Shown: one piece after another, positions 9,495 through 16,194 of the stretch
Layout of the letters: every line of letters starts with the position of its first letter
Position numbering within the stretch: position 1 is the stretch's first letter
From: Candidatus Pacearchaeota archaeon
GTDB taxonomy: Archaea; Nanobdellota; Nanobdellia; Pacearchaeales; GW2011-AR1
Assembly: GCA_018304025.1 (NCBI GenBank)
Contig: JAGVXA010000008.1
Coordinates: 2,660-66,659, forward strand
Direction of reading: 5' to 3'
DNA length: 64,000 nt
Notes under the pieces: generated by a model
What the model saw: the letters and a program-made list of their open reading frames with translations, nothing else
Databases searched by the model: none
What the model was told of the DNA's origin: nothing
Made by a program: the position numbers and the translations under genes

Positions 9495-11624
9495 ATGAAG
9501 ATTAAATCCAGAAATGAACTGATAGATTTGTATATTAAATTTTTCAAAAGCAAGGCACATAGGGAAATTCCTTCGGCGTCTTTGATTCCTGAGAATGACC
9601 CGACTGTTCTTTTCACGACGGCAGGAATGCATCCTTTAGTTCCATATTTGATGGGGCAGAGACATCCCTTGGGCAAGAGACTTTGCGATGTGCAGAAATG
9701 CATTCGGACGGGAGATATTGATTCGGTTGGCGACGAAGTGCATCATACTTTTTTTGAGATGCTGGGGAATTGGTCGCTTGGAGATTATTTCAAGAAAGAA
9801 GCGATTGAATTTTCGTTTGAGTTTTTGACGTCGGAGAAATGGCTGGGAATTGATAAGAATAAATTGGCTGTTTCAGTTTTTTCAGGAGATAGAGATGCGG
9901 AGAGAGATGCGGAGAGCGCTAAAATCTGGAGAGGATTGGGGATTGCCAAGGAAAGAATTGCATATTTGCCGAAGAAAGATAATTGGTGGGGGCCTGCGGG
10001 CGAGACAGGGCCTTGCGGACCTGATACTGAAATGTTTTATTTTACTGGAGAAAAAGTTCCTGCGAAATTTGAGCCGTCGGACAGTAGATGGGTTGAAATT
10101 TGGAATGATGTTTTTATGCAATACGAGAAAAAGAAAAGAATTATTTTAGTTGATGGGATGGGATGTTTATATGATAAGGAGTTTAAGATTAATGAAACTT
10201 TGTTTGAAATTTTAGAATCTGCAAATGCCAAAAAAATATTAGTTGTTAATAACTTTAGAAAGGAGGCAGAGCAATTATTAGAGGGCAAAGGATACGGTGT
10301 GTTTTCATTTGACGGCAAAATTAAAAAAGATAATGAATTGTTCTTTAAGAAATTATTAGAAGAATATTCTCTTAATGCGGATGAAGTTATTTATTTTGAC
10401 CACGATAAGTTAAATATCGACTCTGCAAAGAGCGCAGGTATCAAAAGTGTATTTTACGACGGAAGTATTAATAAAATTGAAAAATTTATTATTGATAATA
10501 TTGGTTATTATGTTGAGCTGAAGCAGAAAAATGTTGACACTGGAATGGGCGTCGAGAGGACGCTGGCTGTTTTGAATGGCTTGTCGGATAATTATCTGGC
10601 TTCGGGACTGAAGGAGATTGTTGAAAAAATTGAAGAAATTTCCGGGAAGGATTATTTGGGGCATGAAAGAGAAATGAGAATTATTGCAGACCATGTTCGC
10701 GCTGCTGTTTTTATTCTTGGAGATGTTCGGGGAATTAAACCGAGCAATGTCGGGCAGGGCTATGTTTTACGGCGATTAATTCGGCGGGCTGTTCGATATG
10801 GCAGAATGGTTGGAATCAAAGATGAATTTTTATGCGAGTTAGCCAAAGTTGTTATTGAGATTTATGGAAAAAGTTACGACGAGATTTTTAAGAATCGGGA
10901 ATTTGTTTTGATAGAATTAAGAAAAGAGGAAGGGAAATTTGGAATTACGCTGGAGAAAGGACTGAAGAAATTTGGGAGCTTAATCAGAAAAGAGAGGAGA
11001 TTGAACGGGAGAGATGCGTTTTTGCTTTTTCAGTCGTATGGCTTTCCGATTGAGATGACTTTGGAAATGGCTCGGGAGGCGAAGAAAGAAGTTGACATTC
11101 AGGGATTTAAAGAAGAAGAGAAAAAACATCAGGAACTTTCGCGGACAGCTTCTGCCGGAGTTTTCAAATCCGGGCTGGCTGATAATTCTTTTATGACGAC
11201 GAGACTGCACACTGCAACGCATTTGCTGAACGCTGCGCTGAAGAAAGTTTTGGGGAGCACGGAGATTAAACAGAAGGGCTCGAATATAACTCCTGAAAGA
11301 TTGAGATTTGATTTTAGTTTTGGAAGGAAATTAACTGATTTGGAATTGAAAGAAATTGAGAGCTTGGTTAACAAATGGATTTCAGAGGGGATTGAAGTCC
11401 GGCGAGAGGAAATGCCTGTAAAGAAAGCTTTTGATTCTGGGGCTGAGGGCGAGTTTGGGGCGAAATATCCGTCGATAGTTTCTGTTTTTACTATTGGAAA
11501 AATCAGCAAGGAAATTTGCACGGGGCCGCATGTTCAAAATACTTCTGAGATTGGGGAATTTAAAATTTTGAAAGAGGAATCGTCGAGCGCGGGAGTTAGG
11601 AGAATTAAGGCGACGGTGAGTTAA
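9495..11624 (+). CDS. alaS: alanyl-tRNA synthetase, bacterial-type, lacking the C-Ala domain, with an internal ~125-aa insertion
   Basis: LFTTAGMHPLVPYLMG, QKCIRTGDIDSVGD, HHTFFEMLGNWSLGDYFK, VDTGMGVERT. Editing-domain HTATHLLNAAL and CTGPHV motifs. Extra segment between FMQYEKKK and VDTGMG. Confidence 0.9.
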   Translation: MKIKSRNELIDLYIKFFKSKAHREIPSASLIPENDPTVLFTTAGMHPLVPYLMGQRHPLGKRLCDVQKCIRTGDIDSVGDEVHHTFFEMLGNWSLGDYFKKEAIEFSFEFLTSEKWLGIDKNKLAVSVFSGDRDAERDAESAKIWRGLGIAKERIAYLPKKDNWWGPAGETGPCGPDTEMFYFTGEKVPAKFEPSDSRWVEIWNDVFMQYEKKKRIILVDGMGCLYDKEFKINETLFEILESANAKKILVVNNFRKEAEQLLEGKGYGVFSFDGKIKKDNELFFKKLLEEYSLNADEVIYFDHDKLNIDSAKSAGIKSVFYDGSINKIEKFIIDNIGYYVELKQKNVDTGMGVERTLAVLNGLSDNYLASGLKEIVEKIEEISGKDYLGHEREMRIIADHVRAAVFILGDVRGIKPSNVGQGYVLRRLIRRAVRYGRMVGIKDEFLCELAKVVIEIYGKSYDEIFKNREFVLIELRKEEGKFGITLEKGLKKFGSLIRKERRLNGRDAFLLFQSYGFPIEMTLEMAREAKKEVDIQGFKEEEKKHQELSRTASAGVFKSGLADNSFMTTRLHTATHLLNAALKKVLGSTEIKQKGSNITPERLRFDFSFGRKLTDLELKEIESLVNKWISEGIEVRREEMPVKKAFDSGAEGEFGAKYPSIVSVFTIGKISKEICTGPHVQNTSEIGEFKILKEESSSAGVRRIKATVS

Positions 11625-12547: not shown

Positions 12548-12940
12548 TTACGGATTAAGATAAATTATTGAATTTTGTTTTCTAATTATATTCGGGCCTT
12601 TTTGGATTGTTCCGTTTACAGGAGGAATTGGAAGGGCTATCGAGTGTTTTTCGTCGTCGGTAATTATGTAAACGAGTCCTTCACTTACTGTTATTGTATA
12701 ATCTTGATTTATAATTTTTTCAGGAATTGTGAAATTGCGGTAATATCCGTCTGTTGAATCTATCGCGAGATTTATTTCGTTCTGAACCGCGAGAGCGATT
12801 TCCTGAACTTCAAGCCGCTGTTTTTCTTCTGATTTAACTAAAAGATTTTGCTGGAAGACGAGCAACACTGAGATGAAAGCAAGAAACATTGCTCCTGCGA
12901 TTATCATGAATTCCATCGCTGACTGGGATTTTTTTTTCAT
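12548..12940 (-). CDS. archaeal type IV pilin-like protein (class III signal peptide)
   Basis: N-terminus MKKKSQSAMEFMIIAGAMFLAFISVLLVF: basic stretch, small residue, then hydrophobic helix with Glu at about +5, typical of prepilin peptidase substrates. Confidence 0.65.
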   Translation of the reverse strand: MKKKSQSAMEFMIIAGAMFLAFISVLLVFQQNLLVKSEEKQRLEVQEIALAVQNEINLAIDSTDGYYRNFTIPEKIINQDYTITVSEGLVYIITDDEKHSIALPIPPVNGTIQKGPNIIRKQNSIIYLNP

Positions 12941-13362
12941 TAGATTCCTGATATTTTTACTTTATTGTCTTCGGCAACAATAAGTATTTTTTTAAGTCCT
13001 GAAGAAGTTGAAATCGCGCCGTTTATTTCTATCGGGACCTTGCTTGAATAAGCAATGATAGAAGTGCCGCCGGCTGAATCGACATGAAAAACTAAATTAT
13101 TTTCTATGACTTCAATGCGGGTCACGCCTTCCGGAAGATAGCTGTTTATCGTCGTGCGCGACGGCTCTCCAGAATAGAAAGTTGACTCTGCGGAAGAAAT
13201 TATTTTTTTGGCGAATCTTTCCAGCTGGTTGAATTTGATTGAGTCCTGAATTTGAGTGGAATAAAAAAGCGAAATACCTAAAATAGTCAGAACTATGAAT
13301 GTCACGAACGAGACAACAATCAAATATTCTACGCTTATTTGCCCTCTTTTTTTGCGAATCAT
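12940..13362 (-). CDS. archaeal type IV pilin-like protein (class III signal peptide)
   Basis: MIRKKRGQISVEYLIVVSFVTFIVLTILG: KRGQ cleavage-type motif followed by a hydrophobic helix; abuts the downstream pilin-like gene. Confidence 0.65.
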   Translation of the reverse strand: MIRKKRGQISVEYLIVVSFVTFIVLTILGISLFYSTQIQDSIKFNQLERFAKKIISSAESTFYSGEPSRTTINSYLPEGVTRIEVIENNLVFHVDSAGGTSIIAYSSKVPIEINGAISTSSGLKKILIVAEDNKVKISGI

Positions 13363-13414: not shown

Positions 13415-13942
13415 ATGAAAAAAGAGCGAATCGTTTGGAAATTGTTTTTTTTAGCCCTTGCTATTGTGGCTATTTTGCATACTGCTGTTCATTTTGTTTT
13501 AATCGAAGGTAAAACTGCAGGATTCACGAACGAAGGAATTTCTGGTTTTACCGTCGGAAAAACGTCGATTGCAGAAGAACTTTTTGAAACTTATCCGATT
13601 GGCGCTTCTTTGTCAAGGATTATTGTACTGAGCGAATGGCTCTTTGTTATTTTGCTCGGTGTCTTTTTGTATCTTGGCATGACAAAGGATTTTAATAAAG
13701 AAATTAATGACTTGAAAGAGATAGGCCTTCCTGATAAAAAAGGATACACTACTGATTTAGACAGATTGTATGAAATGCTGAAGAACAGAAAGAGAATTGA
13801 ATTTAGAGTTATCGCAAAAGTATTCGACGTAAATCCGGATTTGGTTAAAGAGTGGAGCGAAACTTTAGAGATTGGAGGTTTAGCAAGCGTTGAATATCCG
13901 CGAATTGGCGATGCTGAATTAGTTTTAAAGGAGAGTAAATGA
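13415..13942 (+). CDS. membrane protein with C-terminal winged-helix-like domain
   Basis: two TM helices, then LDRLYEMLKNRKRIEFRVIAKVFDVNPDLVKEWSETLEIGGL; 4-nt overlap with the secretion ATPase gene. Confidence 0.45.
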   Translation: MKKERIVWKLFFLALAIVAILHTAVHFVLIEGKTAGFTNEGISGFTVGKTSIAEELFETYPIGASLSRIIVLSEWLFVILLGVFLYLGMTKDFNKEINDLKEIGLPDKKGYTTDLDRLYEMLKNRKRIEFRVIAKVFDVNPDLVKEWSETLEIGGLASVEYPRIGDAELVLKESK

Positions 13943-16194
13943 TTGTGAAATCTAAAGATAAAACAAGATATGGAAAGGAAGATTTTGACAGAGAAGAGGA
14001 CTTGCTGCGAAAACGACTGAAAGAAATAGATAGAACTGAAAAATACGGGCAAGAAATTCCGAAGATTAATAAAATGAATGATAAAATTTCCCTGCCTGAA
14101 ATAATGGTGCATAAGGAAAAGAAATTCCTGCCTGAACCGCTGCTTGGAAAAAAATATCCGTTTTTTGAAATTTCTAATTTGCCGCAAAAACAAACTAAAG
14201 ATTTTCCAGAATTGCCAAAATTGCCGCCCAAAGACAAATTACTTTCTGGAGAAAAAGAAAAAAAGGAAGCCACACAAATTATGTTTTCCAAGCAAATTGA
14301 AAATGAAAAGAAATTCTTGCCTGAACCACTGCTCGGAAAAAAATATCCGTTTTTTGAAATTTCTAATCTGCCGCAAAAAGAGGATGCGAGTACGCAACCT
14401 GCGTTTTCCAAGCAAGTTGGAAAAGAGGATGCGAGTACGCAACCTGCGTTTTCCAAGCAAGTTGGAAAAGAGGATGCGAGTACGCAACCTGCGTTTTCCA
14501 AGCAAGTTGGAAAAGAAAATAAAGATTTTCCAGAATTGCCAAAATTGCCGCCTCAAGACAAATTGCCTTCTGGAGAGAAAACGAATAAAGAGAAGTCATC
14601 AAAAATGTTTGACGAGGAAAAAGAGGAAGAAAAAGCCCCGATGTTGGAAGCAACTCCGCCGAAAATAACATATTACAAAATAGAAAAATCTTCTTCAAAA
14701 CAGGGGAACAAAGAACTGATTGAGAAGTACGACATTGAAATTGACGGCGCGAAAGTGACTGTTGAAATTGACAAGGAAGATATGGTTGTCAGCTATAATC
14801 TTTATATTCCGGAAGTTAGTTCTGTTACTTCTGCATTGCTTACTGATATTCGAAATGACTTGGTGACGATTACGACTATCAGCATGAAAGAGCTTACTGA
14901 TCCGACTGCATTTTTTTCAATCAAGGGAAGATTTATGGAAGATGCGAGAAAACTTCTAAGGCAGAGAGTGCCGAACATTGAGCAAAAAACAGAAGTTTTT
15001 TTGGTTGGAATGCTGATGCAAGAAATGCTCGGGCTTGGAAAGATAGAATTTTTGATTGCTGATCCCAATCTGGAAGAAATTGTTTTGCCCTCGGCGAAAG
15101 AGCCGGTGAGAGTTTATTGCAAGAAATACGGGTGGCTGATGACTAATCTTGTTATTCACAAAGAAGAGGATATTATTAATTACGCAAATATTATTGCGAG
15201 AAGAGTCGGGAAACAGATTACGATTTTGAATCCGCTGCTTGACGCTCATTTGATTACAGGAGACAGAATTAACGCTGTGCTTTATCCGGTTGATACGAAA
15301 GGAAACACAATCACGATAAGAAAATTTGCAAGAGATCCGTTTACAATTGTGGATTTTATCAACAACAAAACCTGCGACATTGACGTCGCGTGCCTGCTTT
15401 GGCTGGCAATTGAATATGAAATGAATATTTTAATTTCAGGCGGAACTGGTTCTGGAAAGACCTCTTTTCTTAATGCCTGCATGCCGTTTATCCCTCCGAA
15501 CCAAAGAATAATCAGCATCGAGGACACCAGAGAATTAATGCTGCCTGAATTTTTGTACTGGACTCCGCTAGTGACGAGAACGCCGAATCCCGAGGGAAAA
15601 GGAGAAGTCAGCATGCTTGACTTGCTGGTTAACTGCCTGAGAATGAGGCCTGACAGAGTTATTCTGGGAGAAATGCGACGACAACAGGAAGCCATGGTTT
15701 TGTTTGAAGCAATGCATACAGGACATTCTGTTTACGCGACTGTGCACGCTGATACGTCTGCAGAAACAATTTCGAGATTGGTTAATCCTCCTTTGAATGT
15801 TCCGCCGAACCTGCTGAAGGCAGTTAATCTAAATGTTGTTATGTTTAGAGACAGAAGAAAAGGAATAAGAAGAGTTTCGCAGATTGCAGAGTTTGAAGCT
15901 GACAAAGGAAGCGCGTCTTCCAATATTTTATACAGGTGGGTGTCTGAAACTGACAAGATTGTCAAGCACGGTGCGAGTTCGAGATTCTTCGAGGATGTTT
16001 CAAGAAACACCGGAATGAGCGATACAGAGATAGCTCAGGAACTTGCGGAAAGAAAAAAAATTTTTTTGTGGCTCGTAAAGGAAAATATCCGGGGGCTTGC
16101 GGAGTTTGGGAAAGTAATGAATCTCTATTACAGAAATAAAGACTTTTTGCTAAAATCAATTCAGCGGGGAGACAGAAAAGCTGTATTAAAATGA
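13939..16194 (+). CDS. type II/IV secretion-family ATPase (FlaI/PilB/VirB11-like) with a ~240-aa repetitive N-terminal extension
   Basis: Walker A ISGGTGSGKTSFLN, Asp box IISIEDTREL, Walker B RVILGEMRRQQEA, His box TGHSVYATVHA. The N-terminus is built from internal repeats. Confidence 0.85.
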   Translation: MIVKSKDKTRYGKEDFDREEDLLRKRLKEIDRTEKYGQEIPKINKMNDKISLPEIMVHKEKKFLPEPLLGKKYPFFEISNLPQKQTKDFPELPKLPPKDKLLSGEKEKKEATQIMFSKQIENEKKFLPEPLLGKKYPFFEISNLPQKEDASTQPAFSKQVGKEDASTQPAFSKQVGKEDASTQPAFSKQVGKENKDFPELPKLPPQDKLPSGEKTNKEKSSKMFDEEKEEEKAPMLEATPPKITYYKIEKSSSKQGNKELIEKYDIEIDGAKVTVEIDKEDMVVSYNLYIPEVSSVTSALLTDIRNDLVTITTISMKELTDPTAFFSIKGRFMEDARKLLRQRVPNIEQKTEVFLVGMLMQEMLGLGKIEFLIADPNLEEIVLPSAKEPVRVYCKKYGWLMTNLVIHKEEDIINYANIIARRVGKQITILNPLLDAHLITGDRINAVLYPVDTKGNTITIRKFARDPFTIVDFINNKTCDIDVACLLWLAIEYEMNILISGGTGSGKTSFLNACMPFIPPNQRIISIEDTRELMLPEFLYWTPLVTRTPNPEGKGEVSMLDLLVNCLRMRPDRVILGEMRRQQEAMVLFEAMHTGHSVYATVHADTSAETISRLVNPPLNVPPNLLKAVNLNVVMFRDRRKGIRRVSQIAEFEADKGSASSNILYRWVSETDKIVKHGASSRFFEDVSRNTGMSDTEIAQELAERKKIFLWLVKENIRGLAEFGKVMNLYYRNKDFLLKSIQRGDRKAVLK
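14380..14514 (+). repeat. perfect 3 x 45-nt tandem repeat inside the ATPase N-terminal extension
   Basis: GAGGATGCGAGTACGCAACCTGCGTTTTCCAAGCAAGTTGGAAAA starts at 14380, 14425 and 14470; encodes EDASTQPAFSKQVGK three times. Confidence 0.95.

Follow-up and report, generated by a model that had tools for sequence, protein, structure and literature searches.

Alanyl-tRNA synthetase (AlaRS) is held to have kept one prototype architecture throughout life (PMC8887476). A gene for this enzyme, alaS, lies at 9495–11624 on the + strand of a 64,000-nucleotide stretch of DNA from a Candidatus Pacearchaeota archaeon (NCBI GenBank assembly GCA_018304025.1, contig JAGVXA010000008.1, positions 2,660 to 66,659 of the forward strand; this whole stretch is called the window below), and the aminoacylation core of its product is interrupted by 122 additional residues. 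The locus raises the question of what these residues are, whether they belong to the mature enzyme and why they are kept. The answer that we favour, with moderate confidence, is that 10137–10502 encodes a complete cap-less haloacid dehalogenase (HAD) domain of the HAD-IA variant-3 lineage, with an altered active site, which is carried as an optional cassette at the turn between strands beta7 and beta8 of a small AlaRS.

An initial annotation of this DNA had placed a HAD-like domain of about 125 aa at 10135–10510, on the premise that only a short gap separates FMQ(F/Y) from DTGMG in normal AlaRS. The premise is borne out, as this gap comprises 15–16 residues in 56 of the 120 best database homologues, which are insert-less close relatives, and 136–143 residues in 64 others, which carry an insert at the same site. 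In the window protein these motifs begin at residues 207 (FMQY) and 347 (VDTGMG), leaving a gap of 137 residues between FMQY and DTGMG. The insert thus exists, but its proposed limits were slightly off, 10135 being out of frame by two bases. Alignment to insert-less alaS genes of the same genus, which have a D-G-G-type beta-turn where the window protein has R215–I336, fixed the limits of the cap-less mini-HAD at 10137–10502 (+; 122 aa, in the beta7–beta8 turn). The reading frame is maintained across it, as had been proposed, within one open reading frame (ORF) of 709 aa.

Structure prediction and comparison agreed on the identity of the fold. An AlphaFold2 model of the insert alone, made from a 63-sequence alignment, had a pLDDT of 94 and a five-stranded alpha/beta core, with strands at residues 5–9, 36–39, 57–59, 87–91 and 106–109 of the insert alternating with helices. 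In an exhaustive structural search with this model the top 50 chains all belonged to the HAD superfamily, among them 3cnh (VIA Z 16.3, with an rmsd of 2.3 over 125 aligned residues) and 2pr7 (Z 14.9). Foldseek likewise placed 2pr7 first, followed by MDP-1 and HisB-N, with a probability of 1.00. The NCBIfam profile TIGR01509 (HAD-IA variant 3) matched the insert alone with 30.9 bits against a cut-off of 29.4, and matched it within the whole protein with 27.3 bits. A search of the PDB by sequence only returned weak HAD-IA matches (E 0.007 with the single sequence, 4e-7 with a profile) and no closer characterised relative. The HAD-like fold put forward in the initial annotation is therefore supported by these searches, while its 'cap-like helices' are not present. 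Motifs I and II are about 26 residues, or one helix, apart and the TIGR01509 match spans only positions 59–154 of the 154 in the profile, which together indicate that the insert is cap-less (C0-like) and has no C1 cap.

The active site departs from the canonical pattern at defined positions. Motif I (10152–10160, +) reads D220-G-M222, in which the nucleophile Asp is kept and the acid/base Asp two positions further on (Asp+2) is replaced by Met; the description of this motif as degenerate and without DxD was correct. At the motif II position (10245–10250, +) this copy reads V251-N252, with Val where a Thr would be expected. Lys278 of motif III (10326–10328, +) is present and motif IV (10398–10403, +) is D302-H303, where D-D is usual. 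The window copy, which belongs to a 'DG-type' subtype, also has Cys instead of Thr at the +4 position of motif I. By its predicted structure the insert is thus a member of the HAD fold, and it lacks the canonical catalytic signature, namely Asp+2 and, in the window copy, also the Thr of motif II.

An exhaustive family search of 1.84 billion representatives with the insert yielded 149 proteins. Among the AlaRS inserts, D220 and K278 were present in 64 of 64, D302-H303 in 63 of 64 and N307 in 60 of 64, and A311 was fixed or nearly fixed. Across 132 non-redundant family members from all contexts, the Asp+2 position (222) was always Met, Ile or Val and never Asp, the motif III Lys was found in 131, and motif IV was [DE]-H with the His303 position invariant. 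The motif II Thr was more variable; it is kept in most free-standing members (30 of 38) and in a minority of AlaRS inserts (20 of 70). An Asp nucleophile, a Lys and an Asp/Glu-His pair that are all nearly invariant show purifying selection on the family for an altered HAD site.

These residues suggest what the domain may do. The site would still be able to bind Mg2+ and a phosphoryl group, although the usual two-step phosphatase cycle should be impossible at normal rates without Asp+2. With this residue lost, the mini-HAD may be a slow or non-canonical phosphohydrolase, in which His303 is the candidate acid/base, or it may serve as a module that senses a ligand or forms a phospho-Asp. A rather unlikely alternative is that the domain is a pseudoenzyme, catalytically dead and kept as a folded scaffold that offers a surface to tRNA, to another translation component or to itself, either for dimerisation in place of C-Ala or for tethering synthetases and ribosomes that bear the same module. 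Consistent with this alternative, Asp+2 is absent in 132 of 132 members, and the window copy has in addition lost two threonines, at +4 and in motif II. Many cap-less HADs have macromolecular substrates or borrow a cap from an adjacent subunit, and the structural neighbours of the insert include enzymes of the MDP-1, HisB-N and KdsC types. However, conservation is strictest at the charged active-site residues in the interior of the domain (D220, K278, D302 and H303) and not on surface patches, and a pure scaffold would need none of these residues.

Before a function is sought, the possibility that the block is an artefact or a removable element has to be considered, that is, a chimeric assembly, or an intein or intron removed before the mature enzyme is formed. 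A reason for suspicion is found about 10 bp upstream of the insert, where unitigs branch in a conserved alaS stretch of ~39 nt (10086–10124, +) that is common to co-occurring populations, including their insert-less alaS genes. Depth over this stretch was 77–159 compared with 9–16 on its flanks in three metagenome runs, a roughly five- to fourteen-fold excess, and 16 compared with 6–9 in a fourth. The left unitig ended at 10118–10124, the right unitig started at 10095, the ratio of left to right depth ranged from 0.68 to 1.29 between runs, and the loose ends read as insert-less hairpins. The stretch is likely to be a hotspot for chimeric joins between co-occurring populations, and the break in the unitigs here means that the link between the N-terminal ~200 residues and the remainder of the protein is less certain than the insert itself. 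A 502-aa fragment found in other assemblies (P0006) begins at about the same stretch.

The insert itself withstands this suspicion. Public groundwater and soil metagenome runs contain it, and a single Logan unitig running from 10095 to past 10800 spans D-V-F-M-Q-Y, the entire insert and motif 3 in four runs, each from a different study; three of these may have supplied the present DNA. As one unitig crosses both junctions, these are not an assembly chimera, which answers a doubt raised in the initial annotation. The same architecture is found in 64 independent database proteins and in 19 species genomes, and the closest relative (P0003) is evenly similar along its length, with 83 % identity in the N-terminal part, 80 % in the insert and 78 % in the C-terminal part. 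The earlier view that intein boundaries are lacking also holds: the junctions are K214|R215 and I336|G337-Y338, there is no Cys, Ser or Thr and no His-Asn at either of them, and the domain has a HAD and not a Hint fold. The conservation of active-site residues at the protein level shows, in addition, that the insert is translated. An intein, an intron and a chimeric junction at 10135 or 10510 were each rejected on the basis of the junction residues and the spanning unitig. The insert is real, being neither a chance nor an assembly feature, and an artefact or a removable element retains almost no probability.

The protein that holds the insert is a small bacterial-type AlaRS with catalytic, tRNA-recognition and editing domains and without C-Ala. 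The N-terminal part of its aminoacylation domain (9495–10136, +; aa 1–214) contains motifs 1 and 2 and strand beta7, which ends in V206-F-M-Q-Y. After the insert come the return strand beta8, with L342, and motif 3, V-D348-T-G-M-G-V-E-R (10503–10574, +). These are followed by the helical tRNA-recognition domain (10575–11144, +; aa ~361–550, residue 550 being the limit of the alignment to the Methylomonas AlaRS structure 9jc7) and by the editing domain (11190–11621, +), with H572-x3-H576 and C675-x3-H679, at which the protein ends. The Pfam tRNA-synt_2c (PF01411) match is split into two stretches, the first covering residues 11–216 with a break after residue 216 and the second including the tRNA-recognition domain, and tRNA_SAD (PF07973) matches aa 662–704. 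NCBIfam NF002436 (alanine--tRNA ligase, 595 positions) also matched in two stretches, with 794 bits against a cut-off of 529. In a 117-sequence alignment, residues R71, D74, E201, N204, D348, G350, G352, E354, R355, H572, H576, C675 and H679 were invariant. The full-length AlphaFold2 model had a pLDDT of 92, its host part superimposed on E. coli AlaRS (3hxu) with a TM of 0.89 and an rmsd of 2.9, and AlaX structures were among the structural matches of the editing domain.

Judged from its class II motifs 1–3, its tRNA-recognition domain and its editing motifs, the protein with its insert is an alanine--tRNA ligase of the small bacterial type. No second alaS was found in the source genome (0.99 Mb, 29 contigs, 88 % complete). 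Since the catalytic and editing residues of the enzyme itself are kept and this is the sole alaS of the genome, it must still charge tRNA-Ala. Motif 3 varies elsewhere among insert-bearing AlaRS: 6 of 64 (including P0011, P0012, P0022, P0029 and P0032) have D-F-G-G-G-V-E-R, not D-T-G-M-G-V-E-R, beside the alanine-binding Asp. Several orthologues with the insert have been named 'HAD-IA family hydrolase' or 'alanine--tRNA ligase-related protein' by the NCBI pipeline, because of the nested HAD domain.

Presence of the insert does not follow the relationships of the host gene. Within the genus of the window genome, alaS was found in three of four other genomes searched; none had the HAD, and two encoded proteins of 597 and 602 aa. 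One same-genus alaS without the HAD (L018, a 714-aa open frame) has an extra Lys-rich segment of ~45 aa in the tRNA-recognition domain, near window residue 500, as well as an upstream open-frame extension. Across the order, a mini-HAD was found in alaS-sized frames in 19 of 301 genomes, belonging to 17 genera and three families. On a tree of the AlaRS core, built without the insert columns, the insert state requires 24 changes, and at least 14 after branches with SH-aLRT below 95 were collapsed. Trees of the N-terminal and C-terminal halves agreed with the whole-core picture of the distribution, and a single clade of insert-bearers was rejected (AU test, delta lnL 647, p 3.5e-5, where lnL is the log-likelihood).

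The domain and its host also have different histories. The insert alignment rejected the core topology by 2016 lnL and the core alignment rejected the insert topology by 3038, while in a control three core partitions rejected one another's trees by 410–680 lnL only. AlaRS inserts fell into at least three groups of the domain tree, with free-standing copies nested within one of them. In some pairs the identity of the inserts was far above that of the cores (0.88 vs 0.62; 0.81 vs 0.58). Divergent hosts did not yield near-identical inserts: identity reached 88 % in the best pair of proteins and 70–77 % at the DNA level between species representatives, which indicates that any exchanges were not recent. 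Pairwise identities of insert and core were uncorrelated (rho ~0), a result that is uninformative since the core parts also correlate poorly with each other (N vs C 0.24), which is a sign of a star-like radiation. Species representatives were more alike at third positions in the insert than at those in its flanks, a comparison that is confounded by AT bias and was not used. Sporadic presence and discordant trees show that in AlaRS the mini-HAD is an optional cassette, and the strong conflict of the trees is what would be expected of one that is gained, lost and swapped.

Members of the family are not confined to AlaRS. Neither free-standing members and other hosts nor the optional-cassette distribution had been foreseen in the initial annotation. 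Many free-standing mini-HADs of 123–135 aa with an identical motif pattern were found, mostly in bacteria of the candidate phyla radiation (CPR; ESM Atlas), and fusions among the representatives included an N-terminal position on ribosomal protein uL22 and combinations with flavin reductase and with secreted coiled-coil proteins. In three of the 301 genomes of the order the mini-HAD lies inside LeuRS just ahead of the CP1 editing domain (L020:2476–5814, +; L021:1439–4300, −; L022:2392–5253, +), at aa ~248–388 between the N-terminal catalytic part and CP1. A uL22 gene with an N-terminal mini-HAD (L023:912–1832, −) stands directly after the S19 gene in a ribosomal operon, and P0132 and P0133 are likewise uL22 proteins with an N-terminal mini-HAD. 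The mini-HADs of uL22 and LeuRS are mutual closest relatives and form a clade of their own in the domain tree (support 98).

Several genomes of the order have the mini-HAD as a separate gene. One such free-standing copy, of the AlaRS-insert subtype (L011:1504–1929, −), overlaps by ~49 nt the 3' end of a dimeric-type GlyRS gene (L011:1881–3374, −), and no alaS-sized frame with a mini-HAD match was found in that genome. In another locus (L024:112–1056, +) a single ORF joins a Ser_hydrolase domain of the YdeN/RBBP9 type (aa 26–183) to a mini-HAD (aa 190–315). Further combinations were seen in P0239, a ValRS with GNAT and mini-HAD; in P0187, a LeuRS with GNAT, Ser_hydrolase and a mini-HAD, the last of these after the anticodon-binding domain; and in P0235, a class I synthetase fragment with a HAD piece and a Ham1/ITPase domain. 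The neighbourhoods of free-standing mini-HADs contained genes for a nucleotidyltransferase, PCMT, uL16, peptidase U32, an integrase and an MFS transporter, and no conserved gene partner was seen in them. Family members of any kind occur in only about one in 10 genomes of the order. The mini-HAD is therefore a family of ~125 residues in DPANN archaea and CPR bacteria that occurs free-standing, within AlaRS, LeuRS and ValRS, and fused to uL22. Its recurrence on AlaRS, LeuRS, ValRS and uL22 and next to GlyRS would also fit a shared docking module, as the pseudoenzyme alternative proposes. However, insert-less small AlaRS are common, so that HAD-based dimerisation is not required.

The same distribution invites a different explanation, in which the insert is a selfish or neutral passenger, a mobile domain that recombines in frame into permissive surface loops of highly conserved essential genes, much like an intein that does not splice, and brings the host no benefit. 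It is sporadic both within one genus and across 17 genera, only ~10 % of related genomes have any copy, the trees of insert and host are in strong conflict, the hosts are essential translation genes, and the most conserved DNA of the gene flanks the insertion sites. The insert is also richer in AT than the gene around it, as had been noted earlier, with a GC content of 0.28 compared with 0.42 in both flanks. This part of the earlier description stands, but the difference is mainly compositional and gives no evidence of a recent foreign origin. GC at second codon positions is 0.19 in the insert and 0.36–0.39 in the flanks, in keeping with a composition rich in K, N, I, F and Y, while GC at third positions is 0.27 compared with 0.36 expected from amino acid composition (z = -2.2). 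Recent foreign DNA was rejected as the main cause of the low GC content, as second positions drive the drop and the third-position deficit amounts to that z value only.

A passenger would, moreover, need a means of moving. The 122-aa HAD fold comes without a nuclease, recombinase or repeat to drive mobility: Pfam and NCBIfam scans gave no nuclease or recombinase domain, and no direct repeats were seen at the junctions. The lack of near-identical inserts in divergent hosts argues against recent spread, and strong purifying selection on active-site residues in every context, free-standing genes included, argues for a biochemical function. Classification of the insert as a mobile genetic element was rejected despite the tree discordance, as no mobility function, terminal repeats or sign of recent transfer was seen. 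We regard a passenger without benefit to its host as decidedly improbable.

If the mini-HAD has a function, its position suggests where this could be exerted. In the full-length model, strands 199–214 and 337–352 form an extended stalk into and out of the HAD, and by this prediction the HAD is an independently folded module at the tip of the two strands; a full-protein model had been suggested as a way to see whether the insert projects from the enzyme, and the prediction is that it does. Alignment with Methylomonas AlaRS (9jc7) equates V206 with Val204, K214 with K212, G337 with G214 and L342 with Leu219. The insertion point thus falls between the equivalents of K212 and G214, five residues from that of Leu219. 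In the Methylomonas enzyme, Val204 on beta7 contacts the methyl group of bound alanine, and Leu219 on beta8, which is 21 Å from the alpha-phosphate, packs on the end of beta7 and governs the rejection of serine; L219M alone abolishes serine misactivation and lactyl transfer (PMC12143591). The Val206 codon lies at 10110–10112 (+), and this residue is invariant in 64 of 64 insert-bearers. As Val206 and Leu342, the equivalents of the pair that sets alanine/serine discrimination in Methylomonas AlaRS, sit on the hairpin that carries the HAD, the state of the HAD could tune AlaRS through the beta7–beta8 hairpin. Allosteric coupling of this kind is possible, if doubtful. A broader proposal, which we think unlikely, is that the mini-HAD is a horizontally moving in-frame cassette among surface loops of AlaRS, LeuRS, ValRS and uL22 genes in DPANN and CPR, a non-splicing counterpart of inteins, and that it is kept because it provides a regulatory phospho-Asp or ligand switch, which in AlaRS would act via the beta7–beta8 hairpin on alanine/serine discrimination or on activity.

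Several observations weigh against the interpretation of 10137–10502 as an optional HAD cassette with an altered but working site. The DG-type window copy has a more degenerate site than the family average, in which Asp+2 is missing, Cys stands at +4 and motif II has Val; with both threonines replaced, two phosphate-binding hydroxyls are gone and the site may be inactive. The tip of the hairpin should lie more than 30 Å from the aminoacylation site, as extrapolated from the Methylomonas structure (PMC12143591), and any coupling between HAD and AlaRS would therefore have to be allosteric. The family is dispensable and insert-less small AlaRS is the common form, which excludes a role needed for aminoacylation. 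Finally, the core partitions disagree somewhat among themselves too, so that part of the conflict between the trees may come from mosaicism in general or from occasional metagenome assemblies that are chimeric at the conserved flanks. The optional-cassette interpretation nevertheless remains the one that we favour.

Several consequences follow for the study of these enzymes. AlaRS, which has been seen as architecturally constant (PMC8887476), here holds a whole enzyme-like domain in its catalytic core, in the copy on which the cell depends. An insertion at the hairpin that decides serine misactivation (PMC12143591) provides a natural test of that hairpin as an allosteric handle. The recurrence of mini-HAD, serine-hydrolase, GNAT and Ham1 modules in synthetases and uL22 of ultra-small symbiotic microbes points to an undescribed form of packaging or regulation of small enzymes in these reduced genomes. 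For annotation, some of these essential synthetases are being misnamed as hydrolases by the NCBI pipeline.

The genes around alaS are archaeal and include those for TFE-alpha, class III signal-peptide pilins and a FlaI-type ATPase. The last of these, a secretion ATPase of the FlaI/T2SSE type encoded at 13939–16194 (+) of the window, has PF00437 at aa 450–634 and a long N-terminal extension with tandem peptide repeats, in which a 15-aa unit is present in three copies and a unit of ~25 aa in two. The pilin genes at 12548–13362 (−) adjoin it.

Comparison with known systems places the insert most closely, by sequence profile, with HAD-IA variant 3 (TIGR01509), which includes E. coli YihX (2b0c/8pno) and the N-terminal phosphatase of soluble epoxide hydrolase. 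The Rossmannoid core, the motif I Asp, the motif III Lys and an acidic motif IV followed by x3-N-x3-A-x3-G are shared, and these were the best sequence-profile matches of the insert, although the score is marginally over the cut-off and covers the last two-thirds of the profile. The insert differs in having no C1 cap, Met, Ile or Val at Asp+2, D/E-H in place of D-D in motif IV and, in this copy, Val for the motif II Thr. In size (~125–165 aa) and in its bare core it resembles the C0 HADs, namely 2pr7 (a 137-aa Corynebacterium glutamicum protein), MDP-1 (1u7p), HisB-N (2fpr) and KdsC/YrbI, at a sequence identity of 14–20 %. As far as is known, these C0 HADs keep DxD and are free-standing, and none of those compared is nested in another enzyme.

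The mini-HAD also has counterparts among modules and elements that interrupt other genes. The hydrolase, GNAT and Ham1 modules of CPR and DPANN synthetases are likewise optional small enzyme modules, and P0187 and L024 join both kinds. Compared with other hydrolase cassettes in synthetases, the mini-HAD of AlaRS has a class II host, lies in the aminoacylation core and not at the CP1 hinge, and has lost its canonical catalytic residue. Inteins resemble it as in-frame blocks at highly conserved sites of essential genes, with sporadic presence and a phylogeny decoupled from that of the host; in contrast to them, the mini-HAD has no Hint fold, splicing residues or homing endonuclease, stays in the mature protein and has a conserved active site of its own.

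The host protein fits the description of the small AlaRS of CPR, DPANN and Asgard lineages, which has catalytic, tRNA-recognition and editing domains, no C-Ala and a bacterial signature, and is found in archaea (bioRxiv 10.1101/2023.05.29.542759). No HAD insertion is described in the passages of that paper that were consulted, whereas the present protein has 122 extra residues in the beta7–beta8 hairpin; nor was a description of a HAD domain in AlaRS found in the literature searched. The insert is a lineage-specific insertion domain in a synthetase, and its closest architectural precedent is provided by the insertion domains that class II synthetases have between motifs 2 and 3, such as the INS editing domain of bacterial ProRS (PMC3973320). 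INS has a YbaK fold and deacylates aminoacyl-tRNA, a known editing function that sets it apart from the mini-HAD; like the mini-HAD, it is a whole domain between class II motifs 2 and 3, with free-standing homologues such as YbaK and a presence that depends on lineage.

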